Assembly: GCA_021399395.1 (NCBI GenBank)
Contig: JAAFKJ010000106.1
Location: 1 to 12,587 of the forward strand
DNA length: 12,587 nt
Source: Candidatus Heimdallarchaeota archaeon
GTDB lineage: Archaea; Asgardarchaeota; Heimdallarchaeia; Heimdallarchaeales; Heimdallarchaeaceae
Direction: 5' to 3'
The notes under the pieces were generated by a model. That model was given only the letters and a program-made list of their open reading frames with translations. It had not been told where the DNA came from and did not search any database. The position numbers were made by a program, and so were the translations under genes. Every line of letters begins with the position of its first letter. The first letter of the stretch is position 1. Shown piece after piece: positions 1 to 12,587 of the stretch.

Positions 1-1953
1 GATCTTACCTCCAGAATATAATATGAGAATAATCATCAATAATAATGAAAGTGACACTAAAACTAGTTGAATTTGTGTTCTTAATTTTGCAATCTCTAGT
101 TCTCTGATGAACTCAGAAATTGATTTGAAAGATTGAACTATTTGAGGTACAATTGTATCCTTAATGGTTCGCCCAGACCATTTACCTATGAATGTAATGA
201 ACCTCCATGTTTTCAGGATTATAATTTCAACAAGAAACTTCTGAATTATAACTTGCTTAAACCATATTGAGATAGGAATAATAGCTTTAATCCAGAGTAT
301 ACCAATGGGTGCAAAAATGAAATCAAATGTATAAACAGTTCGCAACAAGTTTTCGATTTTGATAGAAATTTGTGAAAATTTCAAACCAACATCTGAAAAA
401 TATTTCTCGATAATGATAAATGCTGATAGAACAATAAAACAACCAGCAAACACTGCAACTAAGGGAATCCATAGAACATTCGGATCAAGTAAGGGATGAA
501 AATCAAAAGGATTCATCAGATTATATTTAGGATAAAGAGTACTATTGAGAGAAAGGAAAATTACAATCAGAGCAGTGTATATTATCTCAATTTTTGAAAA
601 TTGAAATTTCAAAGCAGATTTTAGCTGTTTTTTGTAGATAAGAATCATCAGACTGAAGATGCCATAAAATAGCAATAGTGATAGTATGAAGAATCCAATG
701 TTGAACATCGAAGAATCGTGATAGAGAGTCTGAATAAGTATTAAGAATGAACTATTCAAAGGAACTACGCCTAAGATAACTGATGTCAAAACTACAAAAC
801 CTGTAAAACGAGTTATTGTTACTCCAATATTGAATTCCTTTGTTTTCTGTATTTCTTCTTCATCAACCAAATTGACATCAAATAAATATGGAACTAGTCC
901 AATAGATAGAACAGGCAATAATATCAAAATCTGAAAGGCGATTGACAGTTCTGCTAGTCCTAAAACAAAAAGAATCATACCTGATAAAATCGTATAAATC
1001 AGGATAGAAATCTCGAGTTCTCTTTTCAAAAAAAGTGAGAATGCAACACCTATCAGAGCTAGAATCAATCCATACCAAACAAAGAGAGTACATCCTTGTA
1101 TTAGGATCAATTGAGCAAATGGTGTTATGAATAAAATAGAAAGCGTAATCATAAAATGGGAGGACAGAAAGATGAATATTGAATCTTCATTTGAAGAGCT
1201 AATTTCTTTAAACCATGTATGGAAAGGAAAGAGAGAATTCTTGAAAATAATTCCTAATAGAATTAGACTTGCTAACAAAGGAACAGTTGGATTGTATGTA
1301 GAAGTATTAGTTAAAATATCATTTACTATAATTTGGAAATCTAAACTTTTAGCTGACTTTGCTAAAAGAACTGAAGCTGTAATAAGAAGTGCATCACCAA
1401 GTATGAATGATGAAATCATCTTCTTCATTGCATCTGGTATTTTCTTTTTTGATTTGAGAACCAAACTTTTTACTAAATCTAGAAGTATTAAATCAGATAT
1501 GAGTACAAAAAGAAGTATTTGAAACAGATTAGGTGCGAGAGTTAATAGAATTATAGAAAATCCATAGAAAGCTAATTTACTTGTATGTTTCTCTTTCCAA
1601 TAAGGTTTCTTCCAAGATAAATAACTGTTAGAGATAGCTAGTACAAACATAGCAGTGAGATAGATTATGCTCTGTGACAGAGTTAACTGAAGACCAAACT
1701 CAAAAGAATAGGTGAAAAACGAAAATAATGGAACAGCATCTCTAATCTGAATAATCGAGGAAAGAAAATAACCACCAATAAAGACAGAAAAATTAGCAAT
1801 AGCAAAACCAAAAAGCAGCAAAGAAGTGAGTAGAGAAAATACTTTCATTCTAAGAGCACTCTCATTGAAAAACATCATCAGTATAAACCCAGCTAATGAC
1901 ATCAGAAGGAGCAAACCACATTGAATCAGTAACATCAGAATTAGATTATTCAT
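1..1953 (-). CDS. Divergent NuoL/ND5/MrpA-like antiporter-type membrane subunit (3' end just outside window, >=651 aa)
   Basis: Manual translation from ATG 1953 gives 651 sense codons with no stop to base 1 (MNNLILMLLIQ...LILYSGGKI). Degenerate NuoL motifs occur in the correct order: LAPNLFQ (cf. LADNL), AMKKMISSFILGD (cf. AMKAF..R.GD), KSLDF, FKNSLFPFHTW (cf. GKSAQ.PL.TW), LGVVPL (cf. GIPP), YTFD plus an amphipathic lateral helix, ELEIAKLRTQ (cf. QTG.LR.Y) and a final TM. SD GGAGTGA at 1959-1965. The start overlaps the upstream stop (ATGAATAA). Confidence 0.85.
   Translation of the reverse strand, partial: MNNLILMLLIQCGLLLLMSLAGFILMMFFNESALRMKVFSLLTSLLLFGFAIANFSVFIGGYFLSSIIQIRDAVPLFSFFTYSFEFGLQLTLSQSIIYLTAMFVLAISNSYLSWKKPYWKEKHTSKLAFYGFSIILLTLAPNLFQILLFVLISDLILLDLVKSLVLKSKKKIPDAMKKMISSFILGDALLITASVLLAKSAKSLDFQIIVNDILTNTSTYNPTVPLLASLILLGIIFKNSLFPFHTWFKEISSSNEDSIFIFLSSHFMITLSILFITPFAQLILIQGCTLFVWYGLILALIGVAFSLFLKRELEISILIYTILSGMILFVLGLAELSIAFQILILLPVLSIGLVPYLFDVNLVDEEEIQKTKEFNIGVTITRFTGFVVLTSVILGVVPLNSSFLILIQTLYHDSSMFNIGFFILSLLLFYGIFSLMILIYKKQLKSALKFQFSKIEIIYTALIVIFLSLNSTLYPKYNLMNPFDFHPLLDPNVLWIPLVAVFAGCFIVLSAFIIIEKYFSDVGLKFSQISIKIENLLRTVYTFDFIFAPIGILWIKAIIPISIWFKQVIIQKFLVEIIILKTWRFITFIGKWSGRTIKDTIVPQIVQSFKSISEFIRELEIAKLRTQIQLVLVSLSLLLMIILILYSGGKI
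7..12 (-). promoter_or_regulatory. Shine-Dalgarno GGAGGT for a downstream gene starting just outside the window
   Basis: GGAGGT on the minus strand within the last codons (SGGKI) of the NuoL-like ORF, right after its terminal TM. The other junctions in this operon have the same arrangement. Confidence 0.55.
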
Positions 1954-2227
1954 GAGAGTCACTCCTTTGCTTTTCAACAGTTAATTTTATTTTCAATTCA
2001 TCTCTGAATACAAAGAGGAGAATTAATGAGATAGCATACAAGCCCAAAATCAGGAAAAGGATTGCATCTGTAGTTAGAACAGTTCCTGAGATTAAAATTA
2101 CTCCGGAAATGATCAAGAAGAAGAACCCAAATACCATTATATTTCTAGATTTTGTAAAGAGCAAAATCAAGAATCCTAATCCAAAGCACACTAGAAATAA
2201 AGCTATGATATAACTTAAGTAAACCAT
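1946..2227 (-). CDS. Divergent NuoK/ND4L-like 3-TM subunit (93 aa)
   Basis: Three hydrophobic segments with a short basic KSRN loop after TM1 (cf. RRN in NuoK). Size and position between J-like and L-like genes fit. SD AGGAG at 2237-2241 and overlaps with both neighbours. Both conserved intramembrane Glu residues are absent. Confidence 0.65.
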   Translation of the reverse strand: MVYLSYIIALFLVCFGLGFLILLFTKSRNIMVFGFFFLIISGVILISGTVLTTDAILFLILGLYAISLILLFVFRDELKIKLTVEKQRSDSHE

Positions 2228-2889
2228 GGCTCATCTCTCCTGTGTTTATTTTTTAAATCGATTAGAAATACAAATATCATTATTACAAGAAATACTAGAA
2301 AAACGATCAGAAGTGCTATGGCCTCATAATTTTGTGAGAATAAGGAATAAAGAGAAATTGTTTCGAAATATATTACTTGATTCTGAGAAAGAAAAAGTAG
2401 TATATAGATAGAGATAATTGGAAATGCTAATAGTATGATGAAACTAGAAAGTTGAGCTCTTCTTGAAACCGTTAAATCTAAGTCTGCTGATTTAGTTTTG
2501 AATATGAAAAAAGCTGTAAAAACAATCATGAGAACGTAAGCATAACAAATACAAATAATAAAGAAAATTGTTTGTCCGATTGATAGAAATATTAGTGAAA
2601 ATGAGATGAAACTAAACAGGAACAAGATTAAACTCATCCTTGAGGAGCTAATTATACCTTTTACCAGAAATCCTACACCTAGGAAACTACCTAGAAAATA
2701 ATAAGAATCTAGACTAGCATCAGAGAAAACAATTACAAGTGATATAAGAATGAGAAAAAGGGCTGTTTTGATGCTTAGCCAAATGTTCTTTTTCACTCTA
2801 AAGATATTAGGAAGAATAATAGTTACAACTAAAAACAGACTAAGAACTGAGACAATTATAGTTGTTGTAAAATCACTTAAACCAAACAT
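2215..2889 (-). CDS. Divergent NuoJ/ND6-like membrane subunit with ~60-aa N-terminal extension (224 aa)
   Basis: SLILFLFSFISFSLIFLSIGQ...CYAYVLMIVF resembles NuoJ TM2-TM3 (VYAGAIMVLF). SLFSQNYEAIALL resembles the LF..Y...FE segment before TM5. An in-frame TAG lies immediately before ATG 2889, which fixes the start. Confidence 0.65.
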   Translation of the reverse strand: MFGLSDFTTTIIVSVLSLFLVVTIILPNIFRVKKNIWLSIKTALFLILISLVIVFSDASLDSYYFLGSFLGVGFLVKGIISSSRMSLILFLFSFISFSLIFLSIGQTIFFIICICYAYVLMIVFTAFFIFKTKSADLDLTVSRRAQLSSFIILLAFPIISIYILLFLSQNQVIYFETISLYSLFSQNYEAIALLIVFLVFLVIMIFVFLIDLKNKHRRDEPWFT

Positions 2890-2895
2890 CTAAAG

Positions 2896-2926
2896 TCAGA
2901 AAAAATAAGAAAGAGAAAGATAAAAA
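2896..2926 (-). terminator. Possible oligo-T terminator of the surface-protein pair
   Basis: Pyrimidine/T-rich tract TTTTTATCTTTCTCTTTCTTATTTTTTCTG about 20-50 nt after the stop at 2945. It overlaps the next promoter. Confidence 0.35.
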
Positions 2927-2936
2927 GGTTTGGGAA
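2919..2936 (-). promoter_or_regulatory. Putative archaeal BRE/TATA promoter of the nuoJKL-like operon
   Basis: Minus strand TTCCCAAACC-TTTTTATC about 30 nt before ATG 2889, with no SD (leaderless or short leader). 15/17 identical to the element upstream of iorA. Confidence 0.6.
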
Positions 2937-2944
2937 TCAAAACT

Positions 2945-3700
2945 CTAACTTTGATTCATTTTTTTCCCTTTTTTCCGTCGTTGATAGCTGAACAGTGAGA
3001 TAATAACAAGAACAGAAATCAATCCTGCAGGACTGTCGAAGAAAGAAGTTTCTTCTAGTTCAGGTATAGGTAAGTTTGCAGTGAACAGAGGAACACTTAG
3101 ATTGTATTCCGGAAAAGTTGGTAGTTCCGGAACGAGTGGATTACCCGCACCAAAAGTAGTAAAATTACCTATAGTATAATTCAAACCTAAATCCATTCTG
3201 TATTGAAGATTACAGCCAATAGCTTTTGTTAGATTTACATAATAAACAGGAATGTTATGTACCAAATTACTTCGGATTTCCTCGTATAGGGGACTTGGAT
3301 AATATAATACTTCCCAATGAAGTGGTGATCCTTCTGGTATTCGTAGACTCCATTTTACATTCAATTTGAGTGTAAATACATCAGCTTTTACTGAGAGATT
3401 GTAATGATCTAAATCAAATGTTCCTACACCCCAGAAACCATAGTAAGTATCCATCTCAACATCTTCATTAGTATCAAAACCAAGAATATTCATGTATACA
3501 GTTGGTTTAGTGTAATTACCAACTTCGGGGTCGGTAGGAAGATGTATGACCCCTCTATAATCGTCACTAGTTTGTCGTATTACACCTGTAAAATCCCAAA
3601 CTTCTTCTTCTTCATCTTGTGCAATAGAGAGTTTGGTTGACATAAAGAAGAATGAGGAAAGCATCAATCCAATTAATAGCAGAGTAGTAGTCTTCTTCAT
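2945..3700 (-). CDS. Secreted, C-terminally membrane-anchored surface glycoprotein (251 aa), function unknown
   Basis: Signal peptide MKKTTTLLLIGLMLSSFFF...SIA|Q, six N-x-S/T sequons, Pro-rich linker, C-terminal TM and basic tail RRKKGKK. SD AGGAGG at 3709-3714 and ATGA overlap with the upstream gene. Confidence 0.85.
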   Translation of the reverse strand: MKKTTTLLLIGLMLSSFFFMSTKLSIAQDEEEEVWDFTGVIRQTSDDYRGVIHLPTDPEVGNYTKPTVYMNILGFDTNEDVEMDTYYGFWGVGTFDLDHYNLSVKADVFTLKLNVKWSLRIPEGSPLHWEVLYYPSPLYEEIRSNLVHNIPVYYVNLTKAIGCNLQYRMDLGLNYTIGNFTTFGAGNPLVPELPTFPEYNLSVPLFTANLPIPELEETSFFDSPAGLISVLVIISLFSYQRRKKGKKMNQS

Positions 3701-4569
3701 CTTTTAATCCTCCTGATTCGTTTGATAAGAGTAAATATCGTCAGTGTAATTCCAATAGTAGCTAATACAGAGATAAATTGAAAATCAACCTCTAAACTGT
3801 GAGTTCTAGGACGTGATGTTCTATCAACATTCTGTGCAACTGTAATATTGAAATTTGGCCACCATTCATCTTCTGGATAAGGGTCATGTGTGGGTCCAAC
3901 AAAAATTGGATTGTCAGGACCATAAGTTGTGAAATTACCATTGATAATTGTTTGATCTTTGTTAATTTGCTGCCAGTGCCCTACAACACCAGTTCTATTA
4001 AGCAGATAGGCTATATGAACAGGAACGATTAAGTCTAGTCCATCAAACAGAAATGGATTAGATACAAAAGCTATAGCTTTAAGCAAAACTCTTCTATAAA
4101 TAAAATCAATTTCTTGATTATATTGAGAACTGGAACTATTAACGATTGGAGAATCGTCCCATACATCTATCCATTCGATGCCACTTTCTGCACTTACGTT
4201 AAAGCCATATTCAGCACCTGGAGCTGGCTCTTCCCAGAATAGTGATGCTAAAGGCGCATTTCTTATTTCGTTTATTCCATGTAAAGCTACAATTGAATCT
4301 GGATTCGTGTCATTATCCTCAATGTCATCCAAGAAGAATATGAAAGTTCGAAGTCTATAAGGATCTTCTATAACAGATTTTGTAACCCCATCAGTTGGGA
4401 ATATCGGAATATATTTTACTCTGTGAGATTGCTGGTTAACCACACCTTTGTAATCCCAATTTTCTGTAAATATAAGCTCTCCAGAAATTGGAGTAAGATT
4501 GTCATTTACAAAGGGTGTAAATAGAAACGATAAAACAAGCGTTAGACAAATTACCTTTGGATATTTCAC
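3697..4569 (-). CDS. Secreted, C-terminally membrane-anchored surface glycoprotein, paralog of 2945-3700
   Basis: N-terminal signal (MKYPKVICLTLVLSFLF), six sequons, C-terminal TM and KRIRRIKR tail. Start GTG 4569 is preferred over GTG 4581 because GGTGG (4578-4582) sits at SD spacing. Confidence 0.8.
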   Translation of the reverse strand: MKYPKVICLTLVLSFLFTPFVNDNLTPISGELIFTENWDYKGVVNQQSHRVKYIPIFPTDGVTKSVIEDPYRLRTFIFFLDDIEDNDTNPDSIVALHGINEIRNAPLASLFWEEPAPGAEYGFNVSAESGIEWIDVWDDSPIVNSSSSQYNQEIDFIYRRVLLKAIAFVSNPFLFDGLDLIVPVHIAYLLNRTGVVGHWQQINKDQTIINGNFTTYGPDNPIFVGPTHDPYPEDEWWPNFNITVAQNVDRTSRPRTHSLEVDFQFISVLATIGITLTIFTLIKRIRRIKR

Positions 4570-4616
4570 TATTATTTCCACCAGAAATTATATTCTACAA
4601 GAATAGTTTAAGTGAC

Positions 4617-4633
4617 ATTTATAACCTTTTTCG
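4617..4633 (-). promoter_or_regulatory. BRE/TATA promoter of the surface-protein pair
   Basis: Minus strand CGAAAAAGG-TTATAAAT: a purine-rich BRE followed by a TATA box. It predicts a TSS near 4590-4595, upstream of the SD. Confidence 0.65.
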
Positions 4634-4643
4634 TTCAAAGTTG

Positions 4644-4678
4644 ATTACTCTATTAGATTAAAAATCTTCTATAGTAAT
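4644..4678. promoter_or_regulatory. 35-bp imperfect inverted repeat, candidate operator
   Basis: ATTACTcTAttAGATT-aaa-AATCTtcTAtAGTAAT, 13 of 16 arm positions complementary, located between the two divergent TATA boxes. Confidence 0.5.
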
Positions 4679-4686
4679 TCTTAAAT
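4679..4686 (+). promoter_or_regulatory. Putative TATA box for a leaderless ABC exporter transcript
   Basis: TCTTAAAT ending 24 nt before ATG 4711, with no SD. Confidence 0.45.
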
Positions 4687-4710
4687 CGTTTCAACAAAAA
4701 CTTGAACCAG

Positions 4711-6528
4711 ATGTCTTGGCTTGAAGATAAGAAACGTACTCATTCAGCAAAAGAAATAGCCAAGGTTATCTGGCCTTATGTTGCAAAACGTAAAGGCTTC
4801 TTAATTTTTGTTTCGATGGTCTCTTTTTTTGCCGCAATTATTGGATTAATAACTCCTCTTCTAATTAGGGAAGTTATCAATTCTGCTATTCCAGAAAACA
4901 ATTTAGAACTTGTGTGGATTATTGGAGCGAGTATTCTTGGAGTAGCTCTTTTTGGGGGACTTCTACAATATGTTTCTAGGTTTTATGCAGCTAAGTATGC
5001 ACAAGAAGTAATTTATGAACTCAGAAATGACATCTACGAAATTTTACAGAGATTAAGCTTAGAATTTTATGATGAAGAAAATACCGGTCAGATTATGACA
5101 AGGGTTACAACTGACTTAAATGCCATCCAGAGTCTAGTTAGTTTCACATTAAGACTGATCATGAATAGCGTCATCTACTTCATAGGAGCCTATGTTGCGA
5201 TGCTTGTCATGAGCTGGCAATTAGGTTTGATACTTGTAGCTCTGTTTCCAGGATTTATATGGCTTGTATATTGGTTTAGTACCAAAGTTAGACCTCTCTT
5301 TTACCTAGCCAGAAGACAATTTGGTGACGTTACATCGATCTTACAGGAAAATGTCACAGGAGCACATGTTGTTAGAGGTTTTGCTCAAGAAGAAAATGAA
5401 ATCAACAAATTTGATGATTCAAATACAATATATCGTGATTTAAGAATCAAAACACAAGTTTACCGGGCAATTTACTTTTCTGTAATGACTTTACTAATAG
5501 GTATAGGAACTAGTCTAGTTATAATGGTTGGAGGCACACAAATCGTCAATTATCAATTGGAACTAGGAGATTTTGTTGCATTCCTATCTTATCTAGCTTT
5601 ATTACCTGGTCCCACTAGACAACTAACTTGGCTAGTAGGTATATTTCAACGTTCTTTAGCAAGTGGAGACAGAATAATAGAGTTAATATCTGCTAAAAGA
5701 GAAGTTCAGGAAGATTCAAATGCTATTAACCCACCCAAATTTAAAGGAGATATTACTTACATAAATATCTTTTTTGAATATGAGAAGGGCAGACCAATTC
5801 TTAAAGATATTAACATCAATATTCCTCAAGGACAAAAAGTGGTTATTCTAGGAGGTACAGGGAGTGGGAAAAGCAGTTTTGTTAACCTGCTTTCACGATT
5901 CTATAATCCATCTGAAGGTTCAATCATGATTGATTCTCAGAATATCACAAAATATAAACTAAAAGAAATGAGAAAACAGATAGGGTTAGTTCTTCAAGAA
6001 ACATATCTTTTCAATGCAACATTAAAAGAGAATATAGCTTTCGGAAAGCCTGAAGCAACTGATGAAGAAGTAATCAATGTCAGTAAAATAGCTAAAATTC
6101 ACGATTTCATATCCGGTTTACCTGAAGGGTATGAAACAAAAGTTGGTGATAGAGGGATTACTCTTTCAGGCGGTCAAAAACAGAGAATATCAATTGCACG
6201 AACCTTACTGACTGACCCATCCATTTTGGTTTTTGATGATTCTACTGCTTCTGTAGATGCTGAAACTGAAGCTCAGATTCAAGATGCTTTGGATATTCTT
6301 AGCACTGGAAGAACCACTCTCATTATCTCACAAAGGATTTCATCAGTTCATTATGCTGATAGAGTATTGGTGTTTGAGAGCGGAGAAATCATACAAGATG
6401 GGAAGCATAACGACTTGATCAAAGCTCATGGGTTATATCAAGAAATTTATCACACTCTAGAGAGAAGTTTTGGAGAAATAGACACAAATTCACAGGAAGA
6501 AGAATCAACTCAAGGGAGCGACACATAA
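4711..6528 (+). CDS. Heterodimeric type IV ABC exporter, TMD-NBD half with degenerate catalytic residues (TM287-like)
   Basis: 6-TM TMD, Walker A GGTGSGKS, Q-loop VLQE, signature LSGGQ, Walker B ILVFDD (E>D), switch ISQR (H>Q). ATG 4711 is preferred over TTG 4702. Confidence 0.95.
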   Translation: MSWLEDKKRTHSAKEIAKVIWPYVAKRKGFLIFVSMVSFFAAIIGLITPLLIREVINSAIPENNLELVWIIGASILGVALFGGLLQYVSRFYAAKYAQEVIYELRNDIYEILQRLSLEFYDEENTGQIMTRVTTDLNAIQSLVSFTLRLIMNSVIYFIGAYVAMLVMSWQLGLILVALFPGFIWLVYWFSTKVRPLFYLARRQFGDVTSILQENVTGAHVVRGFAQEENEINKFDDSNTIYRDLRIKTQVYRAIYFSVMTLLIGIGTSLVIMVGGTQIVNYQLELGDFVAFLSYLALLPGPTRQLTWLVGIFQRSLASGDRIIELISAKREVQEDSNAINPPKFKGDITYINIFFEYEKGRPILKDININIPQGQKVVILGGTGSGKSSFVNLLSRFYNPSEGSIMIDSQNITKYKLKEMRKQIGLVLQETYLFNATLKENIAFGKPEATDEEVINVSKIAKIHDFISGLPEGYETKVGDRGITLSGGQKQRISIARTLLTDPSILVFDDSTASVDAETEAQIQDALDILSTGRTTLIISQRISSVHYADRVLVFESGEIIQDGKHNDLIKAHGLYQEIYHTLERSFGEIDTNSQEEESTQGSDT

Positions 6529-8444
6529 TGGGGCATTTAATGAGACAAATGGCTAGAGAGGAAGAGCACCGGGAGAAAAAATACTCAGACTGGGTTTTGT
6601 TCAAAAGAGTTTTCAGTGTATTTGGATATTATAAAGTTGAAGCAGGTTCTGTAATCGCGATTGTAATTACATTTTCTATTTTCACTACTACAATTCCTCT
6701 ACTTCTTGCAAATGTAATTGATTTATTTATCATACCTTTTGCTAAGTCGAGTGCATTTGTTACTAATTATGTTAACTCGTTTAATACTTACAATGAAATT
6801 TCTAATGGCCTTATTCAGAGCAAGTTAAATATCCTTACTCCTTCAGCTGCAGCTCGAGACATCAACTCAATTCTGATTATGGGAGGCATGTATCTAGTGT
6901 TCTTAGTATTGAATTTTGTAATGATCTTAGCAAGAACAACTTTGTTTGCACGATTAGGGCAAAAAATGATCTACAGAATCAGAAATGATTTATTTTCAAA
7001 ATTACAATATCTGTCTTTTGACTATTTTACAGAAACTGAATCGGGAAGAACGATATCAAAACTAACGAATGATGTGGACTCGTTAGGAGAACTTTTGACT
7101 ACAGGGATAATAGATATCTTTGCAGATCTTGTCAGTTTAGTATGGATACTTGTTCTAATGTTCATTCTTGATGTAACTATGACTTTATTCACCCTAACAG
7201 TTGTTCCAGTACTGTTAGTCATAGCATTTCTCTTCCAAAAGAAAGTCAGATCAGCATATAGAAGAACAAGAGTAGCAATTGCCAAAGTAACAGCAAATTT
7301 GCAAGAAACAATATCTGGTGTAAAGGTAACTAAAGCACTGTCTAGAGAAGACAAAAACATCCAAAATTTCAAAGGACTTAATAGAGAAAACTATTCAGCA
7401 AATGTTCAAGCAGCTAGTGTTTCTTCCTTGTTTATGCCAATTATCCAGATTATAGCTGCTTTAGGAAGTACAATTGTTATCATTTATGGTGGCTATGCAG
7501 TTATAACGACAGGAACGATTTCAATAGGAGAACTTTATGCATTTCTTGAATACTCAAATAGATTCTTCATGCCCGTAATCAGCCTATTTACGTTTTACAC
7601 AACAATCCAATCTGGATTTGCCAGTGCAGAGAGAATCTTTGAGATTCTGGATGAAGAACCTTCAGTTAAAAACACAGAATCACCTATAATTCCAGATAAA
7701 ATAGAAGGATATCTAAAATTGGTTGATGTTGACTTTAAGTATCAGCAAGACGTGCCAATTCTTAAAAATATTAATCTGGAGATCGAACCAGGAAAAAGTA
7801 TAGCTCTAGTTGGCCAAACTGGAGCAGGTAAAACGACAATTACAAAACTACTTTCTCGATATTATGATGTTACAGCTGGAGAATTATTTGTTGATGGCAC
7901 CAATATCAAAGAAATTGACCTAGAAACCCTACGAAAAAATATTGCTGTTGTCCCACAAGATGTCTATCTTTTCGGTGGTTCTATTATGGAAAATCTAAAA
8001 TTCGGAAATAAAGATGCTACTGATCAAGAAGTCTATGATATATGTCTAATATTAGGGCTACATGATTATATTTTGAAACTACCTGAGGGTTATGAAACAG
8101 ATGTCAAAGAAGGAGGAGCAAGATTATCTTTAGGCCAAAGACAACTAATATCACTTGCAAGAGCTGTTGTAGCTAATCCTAGTATCCTTATTTTAGATGA
8201 ATGTAGTAGCTCTGTTGATCCAATAACTGAAGCTCTAATTCAGAAAGGTATAAACTTCATTCTTCAAGATAGAACATCTATCATTATAGCACACAGATTG
8301 AGTACTATCAAGAATGTATCTCAGATAGTTGTCCTTGATAATGGTGAAATTGTTGAGCTTGGTTCTCACGAAGAATTATTGAAGAAGAAAGGGAGATATC
8401 ATGACTTGTATGAGACTCAATTAACCAGCAATCTTGTAAGTTAA
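6528..8444 (+). CDS. Heterodimeric type IV ABC exporter, TMD-NBD half with consensus catalytic residues (TM288-like)
   Basis: Walker A GQTGAGKT, Q-loop VPQD, variant signature LSLGQ, Walker B ILILDE, switch IAHR. TAATG overlap with the upstream gene and SD GGGAG at 6514-6518. Confidence 0.95.
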   Translation: MGHLMRQMAREEEHREKKYSDWVLFKRVFSVFGYYKVEAGSVIAIVITFSIFTTTIPLLLANVIDLFIIPFAKSSAFVTNYVNSFNTYNEISNGLIQSKLNILTPSAAARDINSILIMGGMYLVFLVLNFVMILARTTLFARLGQKMIYRIRNDLFSKLQYLSFDYFTETESGRTISKLTNDVDSLGELLTTGIIDIFADLVSLVWILVLMFILDVTMTLFTLTVVPVLLVIAFLFQKKVRSAYRRTRVAIAKVTANLQETISGVKVTKALSREDKNIQNFKGLNRENYSANVQAASVSSLFMPIIQIIAALGSTIVIIYGGYAVITTGTISIGELYAFLEYSNRFFMPVISLFTFYTTIQSGFASAERIFEILDEEPSVKNTESPIIPDKIEGYLKLVDVDFKYQQDVPILKNINLEIEPGKSIALVGQTGAGKTTITKLLSRYYDVTAGELFVDGTNIKEIDLETLRKNIAVVPQDVYLFGGSIMENLKFGNKDATDQEVYDICLILGLHDYILKLPEGYETDVKEGGARLSLGQRQLISLARAVVANPSILILDECSSSVDPITEALIQKGINFILQDRTSIIIAHRLSTIKNVSQIVVLDNGEIVELGSHEELLKKKGRYHDLYETQLTSNLVS

Positions 8445-8461
8445 TACTCTTCCATCTTCAT

Positions 8462-8479
8462 TTCGCAATCCTTTTTATA
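8462..8479 (+). promoter_or_regulatory. BRE/TATA promoter of iorAB
   Basis: TTCGCAATCC-TTTTTATA about 30 nt before ATG 8510. Confidence 0.65.
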
Positions 8480-8509
8480 GATTTGATTTTCTCTACTCTT
8501 GATAGCAAT

Positions 8510-10363
8510 ATGGCAAGGGTAGAAGAACTTATAGCTAACAAAGAGGGAAGGATTCTTTGTCTAGGTAATGAAGCAATAGCTCGCGGTGCAATTGAAGCAG
8601 GCGTCCAAGTATTTGCTGCTTATCCTGGCACTCCAAGCAGTGAAGCAAGTGGTGCATTAATTGCAACTGCAACAAAACTAGGTCACTATGCAGAATGGAG
8701 TACTAATGAAAAAGTGGCATTTGAGACTGCATTTGCAGCTTCAATCTCAGGAATACGCTCAATGACTGCGTGTAAACATGTTGGAGTTAACGTATTAGCA
8801 GATGCCCTATTTAGTGCAGCCTATATGGGAACAACAGGTGGTTTTGTTGTTTTAGTAGCTGATGATCCGCATTGTTTTAGTAGTCAAAATGAGCAAGATT
8901 CAAGATGGTTAGGAGTAACTGCTCAAGTACCAATTCTTGAACCTGCTAATCCTCAAGAAGCAAAAGAATTTACAAAATTAGCTTTCGATATAAGTGAAAA
9001 ATTCGAGCAACTGATAATTCTAAGAACGACTACAAGAATTTCACATGCTAGAGCAGACATACAGTTCAATGAATTTAGCTCAAATTTCAAAGAAGGAAAA
9101 TTAGTGAAAGGATTGAGATATAAATGCTTACCAGCTGTTGCTAGGGCAAATCATCCAAAATTGGTTGCAAAATTAGAGGAAATCAAAGAATGGATACCAG
9201 AAAGTGGATTATCAGTTGTTGAAGGACCAACAAACAACGATTATGGTGTTATTACAAGCGGTATCTCATATGCTTATCTGAAAGATGCACTAGAATTATT
9301 GGATAAAGATATACCAATTCTCAAACTAGGAATGATTGCGCCTTTAGATGAAAAAACCATTTTGGAATTTGCTAAAGATAAGAAGAATATCATCTTCATG
9401 GAAGAAGTTGATGCTTACTTAGAAGATAGAATTTGTGCACTTTTACTTCAAAATAATATTACGCCTAAGATTCACGGTAAATGTTCTGGAATAACAAAAA
9501 GATATCATGAACTCAATTCCAGACTTGTAGCTGAAGCACTTCAAGGTATAATTGGAGGAGAACTTCTACCTGTTACAGAAATCGAGGAGATCTCAGAAGA
9601 AACAAAAGATTTCATTCCATTTAGACCTCCAATATTCTGTCCTGGTTGCCAACACAGAGCCGCTTTCTGGGAGTTATCAAAAGTAGTTAGAAAGAACAAT
9701 GGCATATTCGCCTCAGATATAGGTTGTTACTCTTTAGATCCTTGGGTTACTGATACGATCCTTTGTATGGGGGGTGGAATTAGTATGGCAAATGGATTTG
9801 CACGCGTTATTACTGATAAACCTATTTTTGCTTTTATTGGTGATAGTACCTTCTTCCATACCGGAATGCCAGCTTTAGCTAATGCAGTTTACCAGGAAGC
9901 AAACATCAACATTCTAGTTCTTGACAACAGAATGACTGCAATGACGGGTTTTCAACCAAATCCTACAGAGATAATAGATATTGCAGATGTAGCTAAATCT
10001 CTAGGTGTTGAATATGTTGTTGAATTTGACCCTTATGATTTTGAAAAAGGAAAAGAAACCTTTGAAGAAGCGTTGAAACACAAAGGACCAACTGTCATCA
10101 TTATGCGAAAAATTTGTGCCAATGAATGGTGGAGACAAAAAAGAAGGAGGGGAGAGAAAATAGAAGTATATACAATTGACCCTGAGACTTGTATTTCATG
10201 TGGTACTTGCTTAGTTCAATATCAGTGTCCAGCAATTCACTGGAGTATAGATACTAACTCAAAAGGGAAAAACTACTCTGTAATTGACCCTTCTATGTGT
10301 ACAGGGTGCAGTGTTTGCTCTCAAATATGTCCTGTTGGGGCAATATCAAAGGTGGTAGATTAA
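8510..10363 (+). CDS. iorA: Indolepyruvate:ferredoxin oxidoreductase alpha subunit
   Basis: LGNEAIARG, YPGTPSSE, EWSTNEKVA, KHVGVN, SSQNEQDSR, RPPIFCPGCQH, SDIGCY, TPP-binding GDSTFFH...LDN, and a C-terminal 2x[4Fe-4S] domain (CISCGTC...CPAI, CTGCSVCSQICP). ATG 8510 is preferred over TTG 8483, which lies upstream of the predicted TSS. Confidence 0.96.
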   Translation: MARVEELIANKEGRILCLGNEAIARGAIEAGVQVFAAYPGTPSSEASGALIATATKLGHYAEWSTNEKVAFETAFAASISGIRSMTACKHVGVNVLADALFSAAYMGTTGGFVVLVADDPHCFSSQNEQDSRWLGVTAQVPILEPANPQEAKEFTKLAFDISEKFEQLIILRTTTRISHARADIQFNEFSSNFKEGKLVKGLRYKCLPAVARANHPKLVAKLEEIKEWIPESGLSVVEGPTNNDYGVITSGISYAYLKDALELLDKDIPILKLGMIAPLDEKTILEFAKDKKNIIFMEEVDAYLEDRICALLLQNNITPKIHGKCSGITKRYHELNSRLVAEALQGIIGGELLPVTEIEEISEETKDFIPFRPPIFCPGCQHRAAFWELSKVVRKNNGIFASDIGCYSLDPWVTDTILCMGGGISMANGFARVITDKPIFAFIGDSTFFHTGMPALANAVYQEANINILVLDNRMTAMTGFQPNPTEIIDIADVAKSLGVEYVVEFDPYDFEKGKETFEEALKHKGPTVIIMRKICANEWWRQKRRRGEKIEVYTIDPETCISCGTCLVQYQCPAIHWSIDTNSKGKNYSVIDPSMCTGCSVCSQICPVGAISKVVD

Positions 10364-10966
10364 ATGGTAGAAACATATCAAATGATGGTCTGTGGTGTTG
10401 GTGGTCAAGGGATTTTAACCATAACAGATATTATAGTTATGGCAGCTCAGAAAAAGGGATTACGAGTTTTAGGTTCTGAAGTACACGGAATGGCTCAAAA
10501 GGGTGGATCAGTGGTAACTAATCTCAAGATAGGAAAAGAGTTGCATTCTCCTGTAACACCTATTGGTAGCTGTAAAGCTCTTGTAGGATTAGAACAAAAT
10601 GAAACTTTGAGATATTTGAAATATCTAGAACCAGAAGGAACAGTAATAACTTCAAAGACAGTTCTTTTCCCAATTTCATGGAAGAAAGATAAAAAGGCAG
10701 CTCAATTAGCACGGGATAAAATAGAAGAAAATCTAGCAAAATATAATGCAAAGATTTTGAGAATTGATGCTGAAGAACTAGCAATCGAGGCCGGTTTAGT
10801 ATTGACACAAAATATCGTTCTATTAGGTGCACTATCTCAGGTAAAGGGTTTTCCATTAACAGTAGACGAATTGAGAGAAGCTCTTAAGCTAAGAGTACCT
10901 ACAAAGTATATTGAACAAAATGTAAAAGCATTTGAGTTAGGTATAATTTCTGCATCTAACTCCTAG
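10364..10966 (+). CDS. iorB: Indolepyruvate:ferredoxin oxidoreductase beta subunit
   Basis: GVGGQGIL, SEVHGMAQKGGSV, NIVLLGAL, NVKAFELG. Abuts the iorA stop, with SD-like GGTGG at 10351-10355. Confidence 0.95.
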   Translation: MVETYQMMVCGVGGQGILTITDIIVMAAQKKGLRVLGSEVHGMAQKGGSVVTNLKIGKELHSPVTPIGSCKALVGLEQNETLRYLKYLEPEGTVITSKTVLFPISWKKDKKAAQLARDKIEENLAKYNAKILRIDAEELAIEAGLVLTQNIVLLGALSQVKGFPLTVDELREALKLRVPTKYIEQNVKAFELGIISASNS

Positions 10967-11029
10967 TTTCTTCACTAGATTCGTTTGATGTATGTTCGGA
11001 AGTATCTAGATCTTATGAAGTTTTTAGCT

Positions 11030-11341
11030 TTATTTTTCCTCATCTGGAAGTAGCACAGATTCAATAATTTTTTCACCTGCAACAACCTCATCAACAGAAT
11101 GGACCGAGGATCCATAATCACGCAGAGTTTCTTGAATTTCATCAAATATCAAATTATCACCAACAATAGTAACATTGATACCTTCAGTGCTTGAATCAGT
11201 TTCAGTTCTAATAATATTAACAGATTCTACACCATGTAATTCAGCAATAGCATGCGCCAAAACATCAACTCGAGGTTGATGAGGCTTCAAAACATCTAAT
11301 ACAAGTCTTCGTATTCGAACAGTTCTAGAGGATGTAACCAT
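11030..11341 (-). CDS. DUF211 (COG1888) family conserved archaeal protein
   Basis: IRRLVLDVLKPHQP at the N-terminus, GVESVNI, and SVHSVDEVVAG near the C-terminus are the family motifs. Length about 100 aa. Confidence 0.9.
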   Translation of the reverse strand: MVTSSRTVRIRRLVLDVLKPHQPRVDVLAHAIAELHGVESVNIIRTETDSSTEGINVTIVGDNLIFDEIQETLRDYGSSVHSVDEVVAGEKIIESVLLPDEEK

Positions 11342-11395
11342 TGTTGATTCCCAATATCCTGTAATTTGACTAGTTGAGTTGATAGTACATTAATT

Positions 11396-11409
11396 CTTAA
11401 AGTTTTAGT
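11396..11409 (-). promoter_or_regulatory. Putative BRE/TATA for the DUF211 gene
   Basis: Minus strand ACTAAAA-CTTTAAGA about 55 nt upstream of ATG 11341. Confidence 0.35.
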
Positions 11410-11462
11410 TACATAAATCAGAAAGTGAAGATTATTATATCTTGGTATTGTTATTACCATTA

Positions 11463-11485
11463 CGCAAAACAATATTAATTATAAC
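11463..11485 (+). promoter_or_regulatory. Putative BRE/TATA region for the 11538 ORF
   Basis: CGCAAAACAATATTAATTATAA. GAGGT lies at 11531-11535 just before the ATG, with unusually short spacing. Confidence 0.35.
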
Positions 11486-11537
11486 AAAAATTAAGAATTG
11501 GGAACCCCTAGTAACATTGTACAATAGTGTGAGGTCT

Positions 11538-12587
11538 ATGTCAAAGAAATTTCCTTATGATTTATGGATAACTGCAGGCAGTGATGCTGGTATCAGTTTT
11601 GCTACTATAGGACGCTTAGCTAAGGATTCAAGCATGATGCAAGGAATTCTTCTCTCTCTTCAAACATTGATGACAACTGAAGTTAATGTCAGTAATTCAC
11701 AGTTTATGGCAGGAGAAAATGAATATGTCAAATTTGGAACTTTCACCCTTGCAGAAGAAGCAGATAATGTTGTTGTACAATATATTGTAAAATCAGATCA
11801 ACCTAATAAAATTTCAAAGGAAGAAGAAAAACTAGTTCAAGAATTAGCCCTCTCATTTTGTCGTTTTATCATCCTAACACCAAAATTCCATCAGCATCTA
11901 GCAACTGGAAGAATGATTTCATCTGACCATGTTTCAAAAGCTTATCTCAAAGCTTGTACTATCGCTAAGCAGAAGATTTTAGTTCAGAAAAATAACAAGG
12001 GACTGTTAGATTTAATTGAGAAAAATCTGAAGAATATTGATAAAGATAGTATCAAGTATCCAACAATAGCTCAGCTTCGTGAATTGAAGGAATGGATAGG
12101 GGAAGATGAAAATTCATGGGATAAAGGGGCCATCATACCTTTCAAACGCCAACTTCTCATTCAAATGGTCGCCCAAGATATTCTAAATCAGATAATAGCT
12201 GAGGATCCTTTTGTTCTCATTGAGTATGAAACTCCAAGATACGTGGTTGAGGAAATTAGAAATCATATTGATAGATACTTAAGAAGTAAGGAAATTAAAC
12301 CGAAAGATCTTATCGAACAATATCTAACAAAGAATTTAGATAAAAAAGTTAAATCTCAAATCAAGAATCTAACAATTGATGAAATTCATTCTGCAAATTC
12401 ATTTATTGCCCACAATTTAGCAAAGGATGTCATATTCTCCTTATCTAAAGAAAATCCTATTTGTGCACTAATTGATTTCAGAAGTGTTGATTTATACTCA
12501 GCTATCCGAAATGAGATAGGTACAGCCACAGAAGTGCCTAATCCAGGGAACATGATTTGTGATGCCTTAATTGAAGATGTGTCTCCA
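11538..12587 (+). CDS. Large soluble hypothetical protein (5' part, >=350 aa) with probable N-terminal longin-like domain
   Basis: Manual translation from ATG 11538 gives 350 sense codons with no stop (MSKKFPYDLWITAGSDAGISFATIG...LIEDVSP). The N-terminal pattern is beta-beta-alpha-beta-beta-beta-alpha, and the rest looks alpha-helical. The ORF itself is secure, the domain call is tentative. Confidence 0.8.
   Translation, partial: MSKKFPYDLWITAGSDAGISFATIGRLAKDSSMMQGILLSLQTLMTTEVNVSNSQFMAGENEYVKFGTFTLAEEADNVVVQYIVKSDQPNKISKEEEKLVQELALSFCRFIILTPKFHQHLATGRMISSDHVSKAYLKACTIAKQKILVQKNNKGLLDLIEKNLKNIDKDSIKYPTIAQLRELKEWIGEDENSWDKGAIIPFKRQLLIQMVAQDILNQIIAEDPFVLIEYETPRYVVEEIRNHIDRYLRSKEIKPKDLIEQYLTKNLDKKVKSQIKNLTIDEIHSANSFIAHNLAKDVIFSLSKENPICALIDFRSVDLYSAIRNEIGTATEVPNPGNMICDALIEDVSP

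Follow-up and report, generated by a model that had tools for sequence, protein, structure and literature searches.

At the start of contig C4 (JAAFKJ010000106.1) in the genome of a Candidatus Heimdallarchaeota archaeon (GCA_021399395.1; 2.82 Mb in 201 contigs, 81.8% complete), we identified a gene cluster which represents a family-specific paralogue of the membrane arm of respiratory complex I. The DNA examined comprises the first 12,587 bases of this contig (hereafter the window). In textbooks, antiporter-like subunits are proton pumps whose hallmark is a Lys/Glu relay; the cluster described here lacks a redox module, and the relay has been erased in its antiporter-like subunits L', N', and (in one genus) M'. 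The first-pass annotation of the window had noticed three intact, translationally coupled genes with the size and order of nuoJ, nuoK, and nuoL (here J', K', and L'), which is confirmed, and had treated them as a unit of three; examination of related genomes revealed that the cluster contains six genes in the order X2-X1-J'-K'-L'-N'. Considering all evidence, these genes probably encode a membrane module that is maintained by selection, does not pump, and has been repurposed, with J', K', the C-terminal clamp of L', and N' as its core. This is in line with the non-pumping or repurposed scaffold proposed in that annotation, the absence of pumping being deduced from residues.

The homology of L' became visible at the level of its family. 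L' alone had no match in Pfam or NCBIfam at E ≤ 1. Orthologues were detected in 22 of the 24 other genomes of the same genus (g1) with identities down to ~25%, and a family profile (A1) was built from 18 aligned orthologues. Searching this profile against PDB retrieved cyanobacterial NdhF (E = 1e-19), mycobacterial NuoL (1.9e-12), and E. coli NuoL (1.8e-7), with M- and N-type chains below NdhF and NuoL in score. When the L' family was compared by hhalign with an alignment of canonical NuoL (E. coli NuoL, the 617-amino acid (aa) NuoL of the same genome, and six database proteins), a match of 99.0% (E = 2.6e-18) over 579 columns was obtained, in which NuoL 1-613 is paired with L' 9-654, and the NuoL-type C-terminal extension is therefore included in the homology. 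Such profile-level agreement shows L' to be a real but extremely diverged NuoL homologue, which, judging from the alignment, carries the C-terminal lateral helix and the last transmembrane helix (TM; TM16 region) of the NuoL type. Counted from a TTG start, L' has 659 aa; the likely start, an ATG at position 1953, gives 651 aa. Since its orthologues have 647-663 aa and their alignments stop at the last codon of the window, L' is essentially complete despite the contig edge.

We then mapped the axis residues of NuoL onto 20 members of the L' family, using E. coli positions that had first been verified to hold the expected residues (L' residue numbers used here equal those of the first-pass annotation plus 8, as the latter counted from the ATG at 1953). 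Two of the ten axis residues of NuoL are retained in L', and nearly all of the central-axis Lys, Glu, and His are swapped, for the most part to hydrophobic residues. The position of E144 is occupied by Leu, Ile, Phe, or Val in all 20 proteins and that of K399 by Leu, Ile, or Val in all 20, with D400 also lost; H254 is replaced by Leu, Ile, or Val in 19, and H338 and K342 fall into an alignment gap of the L' family. The H334 position holds Gln in 14 members, His in five, and Glu in one. Conservation is seen at the K229 position (Lys in 19, Arg in one) and, in part, at the D178 position (Asp in nine, Asn in ten, Ser in one), and the PTPVSA loop is replaced by NEDSIF. All residue claims previously made for the L-like protein were thus reproduced, namely the loss of the Glu of the GWE motif with an Asp nearby (its D154, our D162), the retention of its D187 and K238, the NEDSIF loop, and the loss of the relay in TM11 and TM12. 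According to PMC3046159, mutating K229 of NuoL, K234 of NuoM, K217 of NuoN, or E144 in either NuoL or NuoM abolishes activity. As mutation of these Lys and Glu residues abolishes function there, we infer that the assembly described here would not carry out canonical proton translocation.

The loss of the axis extends beyond the three genes seen in the window. Of six longer g1 loci, five have a gene for a 488-500-aa protein, N', directly after L'; the 1.5 kb examined past L' in the remaining locus (L030) had no called gene. The N' profile matched NdhB (E = 2.2e-14), plant ND2 (~1e-13), and NuoN (2.8e-10). BLAST against E. coli subunits was ambiguous between M and N (N was best for five of nine proteins), and the assignment of N' as the NuoN equivalent is therefore based on the profile search. 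Some N' copies exceed the Pfam cut-off by themselves (25.3 and 22.5 bits), as do the M' and N' proteins of genus g10 with PF00361 (36.3 and 50 bits, cut-off 21.5). Taken together, the profile evidence shows L', N', and, in one genus, M' to be true, extremely diverged homologues of NuoL, NuoN, and NuoM, respectively. In N', the residues corresponding to E133, K217, and K247 are lost in all nine members, the K395 position is Lys or Arg in five of the nine, and, across the family, H234 and E462 are the only invariant residues among the charged ones of the core. The g10 M' protein retains the TM5 Glu (E144) alone of the relay residues. Thus, the erased axis described in the first-pass annotation for L' holds for N' and, in one genus, M' as well. 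In the genome under study, N' lies beyond the end of the contig; a search of this genome with the N' protein of a relative (G001) did not find it, which is uninformative about absence, given a contig that stops at L' and a genome completeness of 81.8%.

Size, gene order, a fold match over part of J', and the prediction of a complex of J', K', and N' were the basis for assigning J' and K'. K' has 93 aa with three hydrophobic stretches, and its gene lies between J' and L' and overlaps both. Its helices 2 and 3 are devoid of Glu in all 22 family members, exactly as had been noted for the K-like protein of the window; helix 3 often starts with Asp, Glu, or Asn, although not in every member. With a widened K' profile, PDB rows at E ≤ 10 were confined to ND4L (0.27), MbhD (0.36), and NdhE (4.4), which gives indirect support. 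J' contains two extra N-terminal helices and a conserved C-terminal D-E-P-W-Y/F tail, and it lacks the Y-x-G-A motif of NuoJ TM3 (Y59 and G61 in E. coli). The earlier observation that the J-like protein keeps the Tyr and not the following Gly-Ala stands within the genus, where Y118 is invariant (18/18) without G-A after it; the Tyr is not invariant in the other genera. In the VIA fold comparison, the AlphaFold model of J' aligned with E. coli NuoJ (3rko_J) over 74 residues, pairing J' 60-133 with NuoJ 1-76 (Z 8.3, root mean square deviation 1.8 Å), although Z 8.3 can be reached by chance for helical bundles; J' 58-133 also aligned with ND6, NdhG, mycobacterial NuoJ, and MbhD at Z 6.6-7.4. When N', J', and K' of G001 were modeled together, supplied as alignments, K' obtained an interface score (ipSAE) of 0.68, with three runs ranging from 0.64 to 0.72, at least 80% of contacts shared between runs, a partner pLDDT (predicted local distance difference test) of at least 67, and 0.00 for the best of three controls. 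In the calibration of the tool, 58 of 80 solved complexes attained this mark, as did 2 of 110 mismatched pairs. In the model, helix 3 of K' contacts N' 138-200, which corresponds to NuoN TM5/6 by hhalign, and K' contacts J' at 64-130 and 190-212; this corresponds to the site of NuoK in complex I structures.

A number of results weigh against these two assignments. Neither J' nor K' matched Pfam or NCBIfam, and no significant match was obtained for either profile in PDB. Comparison by hhalign with the canonical NuoJ and NuoK of the genus was not significant either (J', E = 0.034 and 1.5%; K', E = 0.014 and 3.1%). K' is absent from the 25 matches of a genome search with PF00420 at E ≤ 0.001; the two weak PF00420 rows in G014 and G019 sit in frames of 519 and 587 aa on other contigs. 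The J' profile had 14 matches among 1.84 billion representatives, with no canonical NuoJ among them. In addition, the J' model is of moderate quality (pLDDT 66.5), the antiporter subunits MrpD (Z 9.4) and ND5 (Z 9.1) outrank NuoJ in its fold comparison, and no Foldseek match reached E ≤ 0.001, NuoJ appearing at E = 1.4 at best. The model may have scored the predicted complex highly because it remembers complex I, and alignments as input are outside the calibration of the tool; the prediction thus shows likeness to complex I, not binding. The complex I-like J-K-L arm proposed in the first-pass annotation is borne out for L' by the profile and hhalign matches, whereas J' and K' lack a significant sequence match. 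We still infer that J' and K' would be the equivalents of NuoJ and NuoK, packing with N' as in complex I.

J', K', and L' are all under purifying selection. For 11 unsaturated genome pairs (synonymous divergence, dS, 0.05-0.75), ratios of nonsynonymous to synonymous divergence (dN/dS) calculated by NG86 were 0.18-0.29 for L', 0.06-0.43 for K', and 0.21-0.33 for J', compared with 0.03-0.30 for canonical nuoK and 0.09-0.31 for canonical nuoJ; three pairs that include the genome of the window were saturated or nearly so. No stop interrupts the reading frame in any of the 20 L' orthologues analyzed, and a single TGA was seen in an additional match (G022). One may consider the module a decaying remnant, whose pseudogenes are on their way out, since its stems are very long (2.3-2.6 changes per site), M' and the L' core have been lost stepwise in some genera, and the module was not found in genus g12 (one genome, 89% complete). 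Such simple decay is contradicted by the dN/dS values, which are not near 1, and by the open frames; overlapping genes coupled by Shine-Dalgarno sites have also been retained, and the deletion in genus g13 (see below) is clean, with the gene for the tail kept. We therefore rejected decay, which we regard as having next to no probability and which is the sole alternative that is contradicted by the data. That the genes are maintained rather than decayed, as proposed previously, is supported by these ratios and by conservation of the module across four genera. In several of the same genome pairs, dS of the primed genes was 2-4 times that of canonical nuoJ and nuoK (e.g., 0.57 for L' and 0.15 for nuoK in the pair G004-G020); codon bias, recombination, or different histories could account for this excess.

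The occurrence of the module is narrow, and its natural variants are informative. Among named relatives, the nearest is a hypothetical protein from a Candidatus Heimdallarchaeaceae archaeon, at 82% identity. J' is present in 27 of 30 other Heimdallarchaeaceae genomes (g1, 23/24; g10, 1/2; g11, 1/1; g12, 0/1; g13, 2/2), and the 52 genomes from six other Heimdallarchaeia families yielded one spurious 50-aa frame with two stops. By these searches, the module is confined to Heimdallarchaeaceae, in agreement with the lineage specificity that had been suspected. The gene orders (Table 1) form a reduction series across genera, from J-K-L-M-N via J-K-L-N to J-K, the tail of L alone, and N. In the two closed g13 genomes, the gap between K' and N' is filled by a gene for a 152-aa protein, with no leftover DNA. 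This protein aligns with L' 555-658 (E = 1.5e-4) and retains P568, S621, E628, Q635, and the final Gly. As g13 keeps this tail gene as the only part of L', the pump core of L' appears to be dispensable and the tail not. Within the L' family, mean pairwise identity is 0.395 in TM4-8, 0.381 in the C-terminal tail, and 0.28-0.33 elsewhere. The N-terminal third of the g13 protein (L087, 9538-9996) is an acidic/lysine-rich low-complexity repeat absent from L'.

Other features of L' and of its phylogeny count against a non-pumping paralogue of complex I. D162 (19/20) is located exactly three residues beyond the E144 position, on which the HMMER and HHalign alignments agree, and L' retains K246 and H253, so that D162 could possibly form a shifted ion pair with K246 and H253 and some ion or proton function may persist. 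The latter two residues belong to a conserved TM7 motif, K246-x4-P251-F252-H253-x-W255, in which P251 and F252 are invariant (20/20) and K246, H253, and W255 are found in 19 of 20 proteins. The possible D162/K246 pair would be a candidate for the compensating charges that the first-pass annotation had named as an objection. It could be argued that the module is still an ion translocator, such as an Mrp-like cation/proton antiporter, a uniporter, or a channel, which works through relocated or alternative residues. N150 and Q153 (20/20 each) would fit this idea together with the three residues above, as would the high identity of TM4-8, the basic residue at the K395 position in some N' proteins, and the TM5 Glu of the g10 M'. 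However, the TM12 Lys/Glu is hydrophobic in all 20 L' proteins and the connecting residues of TM8 and TM11 are gone, the N' core has no conserved charge beyond its invariant His and Glu, both Glu are missing from K', g13 dispenses with the whole L' core, and no MrpE/F/G-like genes exist in the cluster. We consider a translocator unlikely and prefer a repurposed module without pumping. With regard to its origin, a quick IQ-TREE analysis of 53 rows recovered L' and N' each as monophyletic (SH-aLRT 100). Their stems are long (2.6 and 2.3 changes per site for L' and N', respectively), and the forks that would place them among the L, M, and N types have a support of 40 where long branches meet, leaving both duplication and transfer as possible origins of the module.

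Canonical complexes are encoded elsewhere in the same genome, as the first-pass annotation had suggested looking for. Contig C199 contains HypE-HypF-NuoH-A-J-K-L-M, and contig C121 contains a hydrogenase large subunit, NuoI, and NuoB. In G001, the full canonical cluster encodes a single NuoL plus another antiporter-like subunit, and canonical NuoK was detected in 22 of 25 genomes of the genus. Most genomes carry a canonical set alongside the primed one, and the primed proteins might therefore be an accessory extension that docks on the canonical group 4 hydrogenase/complex I-like enzyme of the same cell and lengthens or stabilizes its short arm. A distal extension would not need J' and K' of its own, and the primed and canonical loci are unlinked. 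Moreover, G017, a genome of the same genus, contains the primed module, and PF00146, PF00361, and PF00420 found no canonical complex in it; this could be an assembly loss or a real loss and, with a genome completeness of 89%, carries little weight. Docking on the canonical enzyme therefore appears improbable to us compared with a self-standing repurposed module. In the closed Heimdallarchaeaceae genome G045 (contig C1), two canonical clusters were observed, at 2.763-2.771 Mb and 2.243-2.248 Mb (L093 and L094), one with four antiporter-like subunits (482-679 aa) and the other with two (597 and 520 aa).

The genes upstream of J' encode two related proteins, X1 and X2, that may be partners of the module. 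Both begin with a signal or helix and end in a membrane anchor with a basic tail, and their beta-rich domains carry several N-x-S/T sequons; X1 also has a G-N-F-T-T-F-G motif. Neither matched Pfam or NCBIfam, and a protein atlas search with X1 gave no usable match. The full-length X1 model (pLDDT 74.7) had a best VIA Z of 6.3, which came from its two terminal helices, and a best Foldseek E of 0.29. The X family occurs in 28 of 30 Heimdallarchaeaceae genomes and in none of the 52 genomes from elsewhere in the class, with two genes per genome where both were assembled and always at the module locus. Two points speak against a partnership, in that the g11 locus lacks X1 and X2, and that their adjacency is weak evidence because the whole region of ~20 kb is syntenic. 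In g13, X1 (L087, 7202-8551; L090, 7246-8595) has 449 aa and contains an insert that matches PKD/Ig-like domains weakly, the best E of 4.6e-5 falling short of the cut-off.

Our survey of the neighborhood covered six loci of g1 together with four from other genera. None of these ten loci from four genera contains NuoH, NuoA, NuoB/C/D/I-type, redox, or hydrogenase genes. Likewise, the cluster has no MrpE/F/G or MrpB-like genes and no further small membrane genes, and Pfam detected none among the neighbors. Synteny of ~20 kb around the module was seen in relatives (L027-L032 and L087-L090). A polyprenyl synthase of the geranylgeranyl diphosphate (GGPP) type lies on the same strand 38-56 nt past N' in g1, g10, and g13, and further syntenic neighbors are two myo-inositol-1-phosphate synthases, an NAD epimerase, a 600-aa PIN-domain protein, KaiC, and HMG-CoA reductase. 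The region is a membrane-lipid neighborhood, which raises the question whether the module has been repurposed to move or organize a hydrophobic substrate (polyprenyl or lipid-linked intermediates, or membrane lipids) in membrane biogenesis. The GGPP-type synthase next to N' in three of four genera, the flanking inositol-1-phosphate synthases, sugar epimerase, HMG-CoA reductase, and MsbA-like ABC exporter pair, and the change of axis charges to Leu, Ile, or Val are in favor of such a role. The family-wide synteny of the region makes the neighborhood weak evidence, and no precedent for such a role in the superfamily was found in the literature; taken as a specific function, we regard it as very improbable.

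Our preferred reading of a non-pumping, repurposed module may be summarized as follows. The assembly would be retained as a structural or repurposed membrane complex, whose indispensable parts would be J', K', the L' clamp (lateral helix and last helix), and N', and it would probably associate with the membrane-anchored extracellular proteins X1 and X2. Candidate roles include a scaffold or anchor for cell-surface proteins, handling of hydrophobic substrates, and sensing. More tentatively, and with less than even confidence, we suggest that a self-standing arm stripped of its charges acts together with X1 and X2 as a non-bioenergetic machine, either a scaffold-clamp at the envelope or surface or a handler of lipids or polyprenyls.

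Comparison with known systems may help to place the module. It resembles the arm of respiratory complex I/NDH-1 in its order J-K-L-(M)-N with matching sizes, in the homology of L', M', and N' to NuoL, NuoM, and NuoN (ND5, ND4, and ND2), in the K-x4-P-F-H-x-W motif in TM7 of L' and the NuoL-type C-terminal extension that aligns to its end, and in the placement of K' between J' and N' in the predicted complex. Unlike complex I, the cluster encodes neither NuoH nor NuoA nor a peripheral arm, L' has lost the TM5 Glu, the TM8/TM11 His/Lys, and the TM12 Lys, N' has lost the charges of TM5, TM7, and TM8, K' has no Glu, J' has two extra helices and no Y-x-G-A, and two extracellular anchored proteins are encoded upstream in the module. 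The g13 form, composed of J', K', the L-tail protein, and one antiporter-like subunit, presumably mirrors MbhD/E-G-I-H of the membrane-bound hydrogenase (MBH) of Thermococcales, in which the lateral helix and anchor helix are on a separate protein, presumably MbhI. MbhD also turns up in the fold comparison of J' (Z 6.6) and as a weak row for K' (E = 0.36), whereas the cluster is without the hydrogenase, MbhM (NuoH-like), and Mrp-type sodium module of MBH, and the charged relay is absent. Mrp antiporters (CPA3) are similar in being stand-alone, redox-free membrane complexes of NuoL/N-like and NuoK-like subunits, and MrpA and MrpD appear among the weak matches; unlike them, the module lacks MrpE/F/G and MrpB-like genes, its order is J-K-L-N and not A-B-C-D, and the Lys/Glu relay common to Mrp and complex I is missing.

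The persistence under selection, across an Asgard family, of a complete arm (J, K, L, N, with M in some cases) devoid of the relay provides a natural experiment on functions of the complex I scaffold besides pumping. Naturally occurring deletions indicate that the L tail, J', K', and N' are the parts that cannot be dispensed with. The module also calls for caution in that such genes should not be counted as respiratory capacity in the Asgard metabolic reconstructions that feed models of eukaryote origin. We found no description of the module in the literature, where supplementary gene tables of Asgard papers may list the genes; the available part of one Asgard preprint (10.1101/2024.07.04.601786) deals with canonical complexes only.

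Table 1. Features of the module in the window (positions 1 to 12,587) and gene orders of the module in four genera of Heimdallarchaeaceae.
Feature	Coordinates	Strand	Description
L'	1..1977	-	Highly diverged NuoL/ND5/NdhF-type antiporter-like subunit; 3' end at contig edge
K'	1946..2227	-	93 aa, three helices, NuoK position, no Glu in TM2/TM3
J'	2215..2889	-	224 aa, seven helices; helices 3-5 resemble NuoJ TM1-3
X1-J' spacer	2890..2944	-	55 nt, T-rich, without Shine-Dalgarno site (read by eye)
X1	2945..3700	-	251 aa, secreted, beta-rich, C-terminal membrane anchor
X2	3697..4581	-	294 aa, X1 paralogue, same layout
Divergent intergenic region	4582..4701		Between X2 and ABC exporter pair
g10 order			X2-X1-J'-K'-L'-M'-N'
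g1 order			X2-X1-J'-K'-L'-N'
g11 order			J'-K'-L'-N', without X
g13 order (two closed genomes)			X2-X1-J'-K'-[152 aa]-N'

The genes of the module are tightly packed (Table 1), and G+C content of the window is 30-38%. J' and K' overlap by 13 nt, K' and L' by 8 nt, and the X2 stop and X1 start by 4 nt. At 5-7 nt upstream of the K' and L' starts lie GGAGAG and GGAGTGA, respectively, and AGGAGG is found upstream of the X1 start. No Shine-Dalgarno-like site was seen before the J' start; the preserved sites claimed in the first-pass annotation are thus present for K' and L' and missing for J'. In the spacer between X1 and J', a TATA-like element (TTTTTATC) was read by eye ~30-37 nt upstream of the J' ATG, and this spacer is possibly a putative internal archaeal promoter. 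Another putative TATA-like element, GGTTATAAAT, also read by eye, is located upstream of X2 in the divergent intergenic region.

The remainder of the window contains several other genes. An open-ended frame of 382 aa (11442-12587, plus strand) is present in at least one relative and has no family match beyond a weak one to the T4 RNA ligase 2 C-terminal domain (E = 0.0096, below the cut-off). Positions 8483-10966 (plus strand) and 11030-11341 (minus strand) hold what we take, from the sequence, to be adjacent IorA and IorB genes (indolepyruvate:ferredoxin oxidoreductase) followed by a DUF211 gene, the latter matching PF02680 (E = 4e-32). Finally, tandem ABC exporter genes (4702-8444, plus strand; 608 and 638 aa, each with fused permease and ATPase) are divergent from X2, and such an exporter pair was found beside the module in all four genera examined.

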